From the IMG/VR virus record IMGVR_UViG_2563366924_000005, positions 1 to 40,849 of that record: a DNA stretch of 40,849 bases. The stretch is one strand, 5' to 3'. The position numbers and the translations under genes are program-made. Each line of letters starts with the position of its first letter. Position 1 is the first letter of the stretch. A model generated the notes under the pieces. It was given only the letters and a program-made list of their open reading frames with translations, searched no databases and was not told the origin of the DNA. The DNA is from a virus. Taxonomy: Duplodnaviria > Heunggongvirae > Uroviricota > Caudoviricetes. Positions 1,009-40,849 of the stretch are shown piece by piece.

Positions 1009-1083
1009 GTCCTCTTAGTTAAATGGATATAACGAGCCCCTCCTAAGGGCTAATTGCAGGTTCGATTCCTGCAGGGGACACTA
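1009..1083 (+). tRNA. argW: tRNA-Arg (anticodon CCU), argW; integration target, forms attL
   Basis: Cloverleaf readable by eye: acceptor GTCCTCT/AGGGGAC, anticodon stem AGCCC/GGGCT with loop CTCCTAA (anticodon CCT), T-arm GCAGG-TTCGATT-CCTGC, discriminator A at 1080; the three bases after it (1081-1083) read CTA, not an encoded CCA. Confidence 0.85.
1054..1069. repeat. 16-nt segment of argW T-arm (ttgcaggttcgattcc), left copy of a direct repeat; candidate att core
   Basis: Exact 16/16 match to 40614-40629 (18/19 including one mismatch to the left); lies in the tRNA 3' half next to the integrase gene. Confidence 0.6.
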
Positions 1084-1244
1084 TTTATCAGTTCGCTCCC
1101 ATCCGTACCAGTACGCAAAATCCCCTGAATATCAAGCCTTCCGTAGATTCACAGTTCGTCATGGTTCGCTTCAGATCGTTGACAGCCGCACTCCGTGACG
1201 GGTAAAAAGTGGATAAAATAATTTTACCCACCGGATTTTTACCC

Positions 1245-2423
1245 ATGCTCACCGTTAAGCAGATTGAAGCAGCAAAGCCGAAAGAAAAACCATACCGCCT
1301 TCTCGATGGTAATGGCCTGTACCTTTATGTCCCTGTATCCGGGAAAAAGGTATGGCAGCTTCGCTACAAGATTGACGGTAAGGAGAAAATCCTGACTGTC
1401 GGAAAATATCCGCTTATGACTTTGCAGGAGGCAAGGGATAAAGCATGGACTGCGAGGAAAGACATCTCGGTTGGCATAGATCCGGTAAAAGCGAAAAAGG
1501 CTTCGTCTAACAACAATTCCTTTAGTGCCATTTACAAGGAATGGTACGAGCACAAGAAGCAAGTGTGGTCTGTAGGGTATGCGACTGAACTTGCCAAAAT
1601 GTTTGATGACGACATTTTACCCATCATCGGCGGTCTCGAGATTCTGGATATTGAGCCGATGCAACTGCTGGAAGTAATCCGCAGATTTGAAGATCGCGGT
1701 GCAATGGAGCGAGCCAACAAAGCCCGCAGAAGATGCGGCGAGGTTTTCCGTTACGCTATTGTCACTGGTAGGGCTAAATATAACCCGGCACCTGACCTTG
1801 CTGACGCCATGAAGGGATACCGCAAGAAAAACTTCCCGTTTCTTCCTGCAGACCAGATCCCGGCATTTAACAAAGCACTGGCAACATTTTCAGGAAGCAT
1901 CGTATCGCTCATTGCGACCAAAGTTTTACGCTACACAGCCCTAAGAACAAAAGAGCTTCGTTCCATGCTATGGAAGAACGTCGATTTTGAAAACAGGATT
2001 ATCACCATCGACGCCAGTGTGATGAAGGGACGCAAAATTCATGTGGTTCCTATGTCAGACCAGGTGGTTGAACTTCTCACTACGCTAAGCTCAATCACTA
2101 AACCAGTATCAGAGTTTGTTTTTGCCGGTCGCAACGATAAGAAGAAGCCAATCTGCGAGAACGCGGTATTGCTTGTGATCAAACAAATTGGCTATGAGGG
2201 TCTGGAAAGCGGTCACGGATTCAGGCATGAATTCAGCACGATTATGAACGAGCACGAATGGCCTGCTGATGCTATTGAAGTGCAACTGGCACATGCCAAC
2301 GGCGGATCTGTGCGCGGGATTTACAACCATGCTCGGTATCTCGATAAGCGCAGAGAAATGATGCAGTGGTGGGCGGACTGGCTTGATGAAAAGGTGGAGT
2401 GTTCCACCTTAACTATCGAATGA
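1245..2423 (+). CDS. intS: Tyrosine integrase, IntS-type (KplE1/CPS-53-like), transcribed away from argW
   Basis: ORF 1209-2423; from MLTVKQIEAAKPKEKPYRLLDGNGLYLYVPVSGKKVWQLRYKIDGKEK the protein matches my recollection of E. coli IntS; C-terminal HxxR...Y catalytic region (GHGFRHEF...RGIYNHARY); ATG at 1245 preferred, GTG at 1209 possible. Confidence 0.85.
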   Translation: MLTVKQIEAAKPKEKPYRLLDGNGLYLYVPVSGKKVWQLRYKIDGKEKILTVGKYPLMTLQEARDKAWTARKDISVGIDPVKAKKASSNNNSFSAIYKEWYEHKKQVWSVGYATELAKMFDDDILPIIGGLEILDIEPMQLLEVIRRFEDRGAMERANKARRRCGEVFRYAIVTGRAKYNPAPDLADAMKGYRKKNFPFLPADQIPAFNKALATFSGSIVSLIATKVLRYTALRTKELRSMLWKNVDFENRIITIDASVMKGRKIHVVPMSDQVVELLTTLSSITKPVSEFVFAGRNDKKKPICENAVLLVIKQIGYEGLESGHGFRHEFSTIMNEHEWPADAIEVQLAHANGGSVRGIYNHARYLDKRREMMQWWADWLDEKVECSTLTIE

Positions 2424-24617: not shown

Positions 24618-24692
24618 TGGCGGGACAGCGTGGACTCGAACCACGATAAGAAGGTTAACAGCCTTCCGTAATGACCTTTATACGACTGACCC
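24618..24692 (-). tRNA. tRNA-Asn-like gene (anticodon GTT) between Q and the lysis genes
   Basis: Minus-strand read GGGTCAG-TC-GTAT-AAAGGTCA-TTAC-G-GAAGG-CTGTTAA-CCTTC-TTAT-CGTGG-TTCGAGT-CCACG-CTGTCCC-G-CCA: perfect anticodon and T arms, U33, GG in D-loop, encoded CCA; one T-T mismatch each in acceptor and D stems; 4-nt variable loop. Confidence 0.5.
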
Positions 24693-40423: not shown

Positions 40424-40591
40424 ATGCACTTTCGAGTCACAGGTGAATGGAATGGAGAGCCATTCAACAGGGTTATCGAAGCAGAGGACATCAACGACTG
40501 CTATAACCACTGGATGCTATGGGCGCAGATAGCACATGCAGACGTAACCAATATTCGAATTGAAGAACTGAAAGAACACCAAGCCGCCTGA
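40424..40591 (+). CDS. Small hypothetical protein (55 aa)
   Basis: GGAG ribosome-binding site then ATG 40424; stop codon embedded in the terminator hairpin; alternative ORF 40332-40532 in another frame starts with TTG and is less likely. Confidence 0.3.
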   Translation: MHFRVTGEWNGEPFNRVIEAEDINDCYNHWMLWAQIAHADVTNIRIEELKEHQAA

Positions 40592-40606
40592 TGGCGGTTT
40601 TTTATT
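40584..40606 (+). terminator. Rho-independent terminator upstream of torI
   Basis: Stem ccgcc/ggcgg, loop tgat, followed by tttttt, seen directly. Confidence 0.6.
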
Positions 40607-40613
40607 GCCTGAT

Positions 40614-40629
40614 TTGCAGGTTCGATTCC
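40614..40629. repeat. Second copy of the argW T-arm 16-mer (ttgcaggttcgattcc), 19 bp upstream of the torI start codon
   Basis: Exact match to 1054-1069; the flanking sequence is not tRNA-like (followed by ctattcggagatagcactc-ATG). Confidence 0.6.
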
Positions 40630-40648
40630 CTATTCGGAGATAGCACTC

Positions 40649-40849
40649 ATGCAACACGAACTACAGCCTGATTCACTGGTTGATTTGAAATTCATCATGG
40701 CTGATACTGGCTTTGGTAAAACCTTCATCTATGACCGGATTAAGTCCGGCGACCTGCCAAAAGCCAAAGTTATCCACGGGCGAGCAAGATGGTTATATCG
40801 TGACCATTGTGAATTCAAAAATAAGCTCTTAAGCCGCGCCAATGGGTAA
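40649..40849 (+). CDS. torI: TorI excisionase / recombination directionality factor
   Basis: 66 aa, MQHELQPDSLVDLKFIMADTGFGKTFIYDRIKSGDLPKAKVIHGRARWLYRDHCEFKNKLLSRANG, recognised as E. coli TorI; winged-helix excisionase; window ends at its stop codon. Confidence 0.9.
   Translation: MQHELQPDSLVDLKFIMADTGFGKTFIYDRIKSGDLPKAKVIHGRARWLYRDHCEFKNKLLSRANG

Follow-up and report, generated by a model that had tools for sequence, protein, structure and literature searches.

The prophage analyzed here raises the question of why 16 nt of the tRNA gene in which it is integrated recur at its other end, just ahead of the excisionase gene torI. The second copy could be an attachment site, a relic, or an element with a function of its own. 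The window, by which we mean the whole analyzed stretch of 40,849 nt, starts in yfdC-argW-intS and ends at the torI stop codon, and between these ends lie tailspike, structural, lysis, and replication genes together with genes for a CI-like repressor and an N-like antiterminator. Its closest relatives among phages are N7, HF4s, Kapi1, Sf6, HK620, and CUS-3, all of which are Lederbergvirus (P22-like), and the window is a prophage of the Sf6/HK620/CUS-3/KplE1 type at argW. With argW-attL-intS at one end and torI at the other, it carries the recombination module of HK620, Sf6, CUS-3, and KplE1, which has been studied as KplE1/CPS-53 in K-12, where attL-intS forms one end and torI-attR the other (PMC2951348, PMC3509656).

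The argW repeat and its surroundings

The features on which the argument turns are collected in table 1. TorI matches K-12-type and IMG/VR copies at 100% identity, and intS together with attL is 99% identical to ABWA45. In ABWA45 itself (NZ_CP022154.1, 3563003-3638092) the interval from argW/intS to torI/dsdC is about 75 kb long, roughly twice a P22-like genome, and a composite or tandem element may occupy argW there. The N-like, CI-like, RecT, and Gam genes of the window are upstream of the terminator on the + strand, RecT and Gam lead to torI, and torI, behind the terminator, is the last gene of the N/pL operon.

Table 1. Features of the window discussed in the text, with positions counted from its first base.
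Feature	Position	Strand	Basis or remark
argW, tRNA-Arg(CCU)	1009..1081	+	ARAGORN; aligned to ABWA45, CUS-3, HK620
16-mer copy 1: argW T-arm, bacterial (B) side of attL, abutting the crossover core	1054..1069	+	
attL core CTGCAGGGGACAC(T)AT, the real 16-nt identity segment, sole copy in the window	1069..1084	+	PMC2951348; HK620/Sf6 attP core
P' arm with five published TorI sites (I1-I2 1089-1116, I3-I5 1152-1179)	1089..1179	+	Transferred from PMC2951348
intS, tyrosine integrase (Arm-DNA-bind_3, Phage_int_M, Phage_integrase)	1245..2423	+	Pfam; RefSeq name in ABWA45
Intrinsic terminator, end of the early-left (N/pL) operon	40581..40606	+	Hairpin 40581-40600 with T run
Equivalent of the HK620 'promoter, phage integration'	40604..40642	+	cII protein site 40605-40617, TTGCCTGATTTGC; unlikely as a promoter
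16-mer copy 2: T-loop box, first element of the conserved torI-attP-intS module	40614..40629	+	
Shine-Dalgarno GGAG of torI	40636..40639	+	Sequence reading; conserved in alignment
torI, recombination directionality factor, 66 aa plus stop	40649..40849	+	RefSeq torI name in close relatives

A first-pass annotation of this DNA had reported that a 16-nt segment of the argW T-arm recurs before torI, and this is what we find: on the + strand of the whole window TTGCAGGTTCGATTCC occurs exactly twice (table 1), and a scan of the window at two or fewer mismatches returned no further site. The expectation from shuffled sequence is 0.04 sites, and two or more sites were present in 0 of 100 shuffles; chance, which the same annotation had considered very unlikely as a source of a 16/16 match, does not explain the repeat. 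Its description of the second copy as lying 19 nt before the torI ATG and after a terminator is likewise accurate, with the copy starting about 7-13 nt past an intrinsic-terminator-like hairpin. HK022, HK140, and Stx phages have the same terminator, and their homology with the window ends at about 40607-40612, just before the second copy. The latter, which we call the T-loop box, has the last early-left terminator on one side and the torI ribosome-binding site on the other; the part of it that is conserved across genera is 40617-40630, CAGGTTCGATTCCC.

The first copy runs from the final two bases of the variable loop of tRNA-Arg(CCU) through the 5' T-stem and the T-loop into two bases of the 3' T-stem, and a published attL substrate primer begins GCTAATTGCAGGTTCGATTCC (PMC3509656). 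The 3' end of argW is supplied by the phage and in the window encodes CTA, not CCA. It had also been noted that the run ctatt follows both copies. The letters are indeed there, but the agreement is a coincidence, since the window reads GGGGACAC-T-ATTT at attL whereas ABWA45, CUS-3, and HK620 attP align as GGGGACAC-C-ATTT; the likeness of T-ATTT to the CCCTATTCGG that follows the right copy comes down to one substitution private to the window genome.

Some further observations concern the tRNA genes and attL. The private substitution, at 1082 (C-to-T; 1081-1083), makes argW read ...GGGGACA-CTA instead of CCA and was not seen in ABWA45, CUS-3, or HK620 attP; either the CCA-adding enzyme would have to repair the tRNA 3' end or the base is a sequencing error. 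The pentamers of TorI sites I1-I5 in the window are GTTCG, GTACG, GTTCG, GTTCG, and GATCG, of which the second (I2, 1111-1115) is GTCCG in relatives and represents a second private substitution in attL. A gene for tRNA-Asn(GTT) lies inside the prophage at 24618-24692 on the - strand, between the Q-like region and the lysis genes, and its T-loop, GGTTCGAGTCC, is the sole other near-match to the box in the window.

Position of the recombination core

The duplicated crossover core of the module is CTGCAGGGGACACCAT, at the 3' end of argW (Panis et al. 2010, PMC2951348), and in Kapi1 the same sequence was described as a 17-bp duplication at both prophage ends, with attP between xis and int (PMC8787464). 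In the HK620 and Sf6 records these 16 nt carry the label attP core and lie downstream of the torI homolog. In the window CTGCAGGGGACACCAT has a single match, the one at attL. The core is found 74 nt past the torI stop in ABWA45, K-12, and HK620 attP. In K-12 a 15-nt argW pseudogene, pawZ, is annotated after torI, and in ABWA45, which is 98.7% identical to the window over the last 550 nt, the core lies between torI and dsdC. Furthermore, in 22 of 22 loci, which come from many genera, 275 nt separate the torI ATG from the core. Based on these two distances, the attR core of the window is predicted at about 40923-40938, just outside the window. As a practical correction, the prophage boundary would therefore be placed about 300 bp beyond 40614-40629. 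The bases past the window end, as inferred from relatives, would read GGGTAAAATAGCGGGTAAAAT..., followed by CTGCAGGGGACACCAT at about 40923-40938 and then by the dsdC flank.

The 16-mer before torI is TTGCAGGTTCGATTCC rather than the sequence that is identical at both ends, and it lies upstream of torI rather than between torI and dsdC. A 135-bp attR, made with an upstream primer at the equivalent of window 40826-40845, supports excision in vitro (PMC3509656), and the 16-mer is thus not needed for excision in vitro, since this substrate starts at window 40826. The right-hand 16-mer is not the attachment-site crossover. The first-pass annotation had doubted it as well and had offered, as one alternative, a true attR past the window, and both the single CTGCAGGGGACACCAT match and the core downstream of torI in relatives, K-12 attR included, bear it out.

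The last bases of torI, GGGTAA (40844-40849), are the start of the first GGGTAAAA repeat, and we infer that the GGGTAAAA repeat from the torI end is a candidate IntS arm-type site of attR. The 275-nt spacing between the torI ATG and the core is exact, for example in L003, L001, L132, and L245, even though torI itself diverges by about 24% at the nucleotide level. In L230, L252, L285, and L295, GGTTCGAT recurs about 170-190 nt past the att core within inverted repeats (for example TGATGGTA...TACCATCA); in this attR-flanking DNA it is possibly part of the control region of a neighboring integrated element.

Conservation and origin of the T-loop box

Homologs of torI with their flanks were taken from GTDB genomes (24 loci) and from IMG/VR contigs obtained with four TorI queries and four further proteins. 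The center of the box, (CA)GGTTCGATT(C/T)CC, stands a few bases before the torI ribosome-binding site in many lineages of Enterobacterales, including E. coli, Enterobacter, Citrobacter, Serratia, Pantoea, Edwardsiella, a Hafnia-type lineage, and several uncultured ones, and the box is 28-29 nt from the torI ATG in 19 of 22 loci. Across 15 aligned lineages GTTCGATT and one C are invariant, a count that is inflated because these lineages were picked for carrying the box; the surrounding leader varies. Among 16 box-bearing lineages, namely those 15 and Serratia, only 10 of 66 third positions of torI are invariant, pairwise identity over all third positions averages 58%, and invariant runs within the coding sequence reach 7 nt at most. 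Because of the way in which the aligned lineages had been chosen, all 49 distinct TorI proteins were scored as well, and their distribution provides a test with less bias. GGTTCGATTCC is matched best with 0-2 mismatches for 31 of them, with 3 mismatches for none, and with 4-6 mismatches, which is the random level, for the remaining 18. The box is therefore either retained whole or lost entirely. We read these patterns as conservation of the box by selection across Enterobacterales. The module around it is known and well characterized; a conserved, tRNA-derived box in the leader of its excisionase gene is unreported.

Homology between modules begins exactly at the box in several lineages, and single-base variants of the box occur in 5 of 80 E. 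coli-type loci. Modules that look intact and have no box are found in Klebsiella-type loci (L267/L269), in Dryocola, where a clean 25-nt stretch is absent, and in Cronobacter, and the existence of such modules indicates that the box is dispensable. In HK140 (L426:985-1025) and Dryocola (L134) the same terminator is followed by GCCTG|GAG and the ribosome-binding site, with no box in between, and compared with these two loci the box has the appearance of an insertion or deletion of 25 nt. Tandem copies of the box are present in five lineages (L281, L292, L293, L288, and L130); they lie about 50 nt before torI in L281, L292, and L293, and the periods, L288 and L130 included, are irregular (17, 14, and 13 nt).

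The likeness of the box to argW differs in extent between lineages. It amounts to 16/16 in E. coli, to 17/18 in Serratia (TTCCAGGTTCGATTCCTG, which reaches CCTG on the 3' side), and to 22/26 with gaps in one Pantoea, where it reaches the variable loop. The T-arm flanks that are kept are thus not the same in each lineage, and the likeness exceeds that to a generic T-loop; for lineage-specific argW flanks of this kind, convergence would be a poorer fit than descent from a longer segment of tRNA origin. Next to its core, attP has a diverged T-loop of its own, which reads TTCGATGTA for most lineages and GTAGATGTC for E. coli, and for this reason the box is a second, better-preserved copy and not the missing half of a split attP. 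The same diverged T-loop contradicts a simple origin by insertion of torI into a longer attP. Stepwise origins of the box through an aberrant IntS event at the boundary between half-site and overlap, or through tandem prophages, were worked through on paper, and nothing parsimonious emerged. An exact-pattern scan of viral contigs, anchored on the flank next to the terminator, for a relative that joins the terminator directly to the full tRNA 3' half gave none; all 123 sites run into torI. Two protein searches, which reached TorI relatives of at least 51% identity, revealed none at other tRNAs, and every inspected locus with a recognizable core is at the 3' end of tRNA-Arg(CCU). A 14-mer scan for the Edwardsiella core proved non-specific.

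The most divergent TorI homolog (L427:2705-2800, 51% identity) has no box before the gene. Its attR holds a contiguous perfect T-arm and core, CCCAGGTTCGATTCC-TGTAGGGGACACCA, and GGGTAAAA arm-type repeats are absent.

The box could instead be a neutral fossil with no function today, left behind by the decay of an attP segment that was once longer and identical to the tRNA, or by an aberrant IntS event. The box is dispensable for excision in vitro and missing from several otherwise intact modules, cleanly deleted in Dryocola, and varies by single bases in those few E. coli-type loci; moreover, the perfect T-arm and core in attR of L427, where there is no box, have the look of an ancestral long attP. 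Against decay, eight bases and one more are invariant in the box as compared with only 15% of torI third positions, half-decayed copies were not found among the 49 TorI proteins, where the box is intact or absent, its position is fixed, and it is better preserved than the working attP T-loop (TTCGATGTA). We regard a functionless fossil as rather unlikely. The suggestion in the first-pass annotation that the copy is vestigial thus holds for its derivation from the tRNA and fails for its center, which is conserved far past neutral expectation.

Candidate roles and comparison with known systems

We propose that the box is a tRNA-derived cis element kept by selection and probably a candidate site for IntS or TorI through which torI is controlled. 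Taken as a whole, the reading in which the 16-mer is not the crossover and a selected box is a candidate DNA site for the module's own proteins, controlling torI, has in our judgment about an even chance of being right. We favor a DNA site because the box contains GTTCG, because it is identical to a putative attB half-site, and because torI expression by itself triggers excision. The cores of the TorI sites read GTTCG, GATCG, or GTCCG, and it is through such sites in attL that TorI represses intS (PintS) (PMC2951348). Expression of torI alone is sufficient for excision (PMC3509656); Panis et al. (2010) called its control and promoter uncharacterized and concluded that the decision to excise rests on torI expression in this family (PMC2951348). 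In the mechanism that we envisage, IntS, TorI, or both would bind the box directly ahead of the torI ribosome-binding site, and the bound protein would damp read-through expression of torI. Rho control of torI has reportedly been described by Menouni and colleagues in 2013.

An inverted repeat, GATGTC-TGCAGGG-GACACC, is present in attP. Since GATGTC and GACACC are inverted around TGCAGGG, we infer that TGCAGGG is the 7-bp overlap and that the argW T-arm is the left integrase half-site of attB. The box corresponds to the argW sequence left of this deduced overlap: GGTTCGATTCC is present at 1059-1069 and at 40619-40629, and both copies end at the boundary. The half-site of attP beside the core varies widely between lineages and the box does not, and inspection of the sequences gave no sign of covariation between the C/T position of the box and the attP half-site. 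An inverted GTTCG in torI codons 3-5 (CACGAACT) was dropped as a candidate because loci whose protein reads MQHQ... do not keep it.

A more specific version can be drawn from the half-site, which we advance only tentatively. The box may be an attB half-site mimic carried within the phage, at which the constitutive IntS of the lysogen (through its core-binding domain) or TorI (through GTTCG) would gate torI; or it may be a distal attP site used in integration only. If either the mimic or the integration-only reading is true, the excision switch of the argW-integrating P22-like phages gains a feedback element copied from the target tRNA. We know of no integrase of the KplE1/HK620-type family that uses such a half-site as an operator. 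The wider point is modest: in many genera an invariant tRNA-derived box keeps the same spacing to the torI start, which makes it an obvious candidate for a control element.

The selected box could instead act at the level of RNA, by pairing in the leader with the Shine-Dalgarno sequence (UUCC/GGAG) or by mimicking a tRNA T-arm, and in this way set translation or processing. UUCC does stand 4-7 nt ahead of GGAG in most lineages, folds of single sequences often pair AUU(U/C)CC with GGAGAU and GGUU with AACC, and the Edwardsiella-type copies can form a 6-bp hairpin that resembles a T-arm. Such an element is nevertheless improbable: RNAalifold found no consensus structure in the 15-lineage alignment, covariation is absent, the E. 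coli copy has no T-stem, and the native box sequesters the ribosome-binding site no more than a shuffled one does, the share of shuffles at or below native being inconsistent (0.03-0.91). The best Rfam matches fall far below gathering scores, and ARAGORN calls tRNAs only at argW and at 24618-24692 and none at the box.

Two roles have been assigned to these bases in database records. Features named 'promoter, phage integration' and 'cII protein' in HK620, which cover 40604-40642, and an annotation that repeats them by homology in the Sf6 record, would make the box part of a CII-activated integration promoter pI, with a transcript that starts at torI and expresses intS without TorI; the first TTGC of the 16-mer would then be half of a CII box. 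The prophage does have a lambda-type CII box at 32141 (TTGCGTTTGTTTGC, 32141-32154 on the + strand, at the start of the presumed cII gene), which we take to be the same CII box as that of lambda pRE. The spacing in that box is TTGC-N6-TTGC, whereas TTGCCTGATTTGC has TTGC-N5-TTGC; K-12 and a sizeable minority of the E. coli-type loci have TTAC in place of the first TTGC, the TTGC repeats are missing in other genera that retain the box, and no promoter-like match, such as a sigma-70-like hexamer pair, was found. Additionally, intS has its own mapped promoter in attL (PMC2951348). An HK620-type cII promoter at this place is unlikely, and we consider it very improbable that pI accounts for the box.

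The CUS-3 record (CP000711) starts and ends at the 16-mer and labels it attL core and attR core (L005:1-16, L004:3560-3575), exactly the same repeat in the same two places as in the window. In our view these labels are a mis-annotation by which torI and the real attR are left outside the prophage, because the published core lies elsewhere and because Panis et al. count CUS-3 among the carriers of the same recombination module, with attL/attR, intS, and the RDF gene (PMC2951348). The CUS-3 GenBank boundary, identical to the 16-mer, should not be copied. That the two 16-mers are real attL and attR cores, or that the right one is a secondary site for alternative excision or for a tandem element, as the first-pass annotation had also considered, can hardly be credited despite the exact 16-nt direct repeat at both ends and a CUS-3 record trimmed to it, since recombination there would strand torI outside the element and break argW, the CTATTCG after the right copy differs from the inferred overlap TGCAGGG, the 135-bp attR recombines without the copy, a second core or a second integrase end is absent from the window, and the core is fixed elsewhere by junction sequence and in vitro recombination (PMC2951348, PMC3509656, PMC8787464) in a module that CUS-3 shares.

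Compared with known systems, the box resembles several and coincides with none. The att core of KplE1 (CPS-53), HK620, Sf6, and Kapi1 is, like the 16-mer, a short argW-derived segment that is duplicated in the prophage as part of the same module, and within argW the 16-mer abuts this core with a 1-base overlap. The core, however, is an identity segment that contains the strand-exchange region and comes after torI, whereas the 16-mer comes before torI, has unrelated bases after it, and is not part of the minimal attR that recombines in vitro. It is with this core, placed elsewhere by the published KplE1, HK620, and Kapi1 data, that the labels in CP000711 conflict. Lambda pI is like the box in its position just upstream of or overlapping the excisionase gene and in having a TTGC repeat; in the box, this repeat has N5 spacing and is polymorphic, promoter hexamers are absent, and the conserved bases are those of the T-loop, not TTGC.

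The two closest comparisons are with sites of the module's own proteins. An attB core-type (B) half-site, or a pseudo-attB, shares with the box the argW bases that end at the deduced overlap boundary. The box lacks a matching overlap and a clear second half-site, as it is followed by CTATTCG and then by GAGATAG, which matches GACACC at 3 of 6 positions, and it is about 304 bp from the real core. The TorI sites I1-I5 of attL lie in phased arrays in the P' arm, in contrast to the box, which belongs to the torI leader and is present once in E. coli. After GTTCG the 22 P'-arm TorI sites of E. coli, L245, L267, and L290 have C or T and never A, whereas the box always has A and accordingly shows neither the pyrimidine after the pentamer nor the CAGTTCGY 8-mer. 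What the box has in common with the TorI sites is the pentamer GTTCG itself, at 40620-40624, and site I1, CAGTTCGCTCC, resembles the box, CAGGTTCGATTCC.
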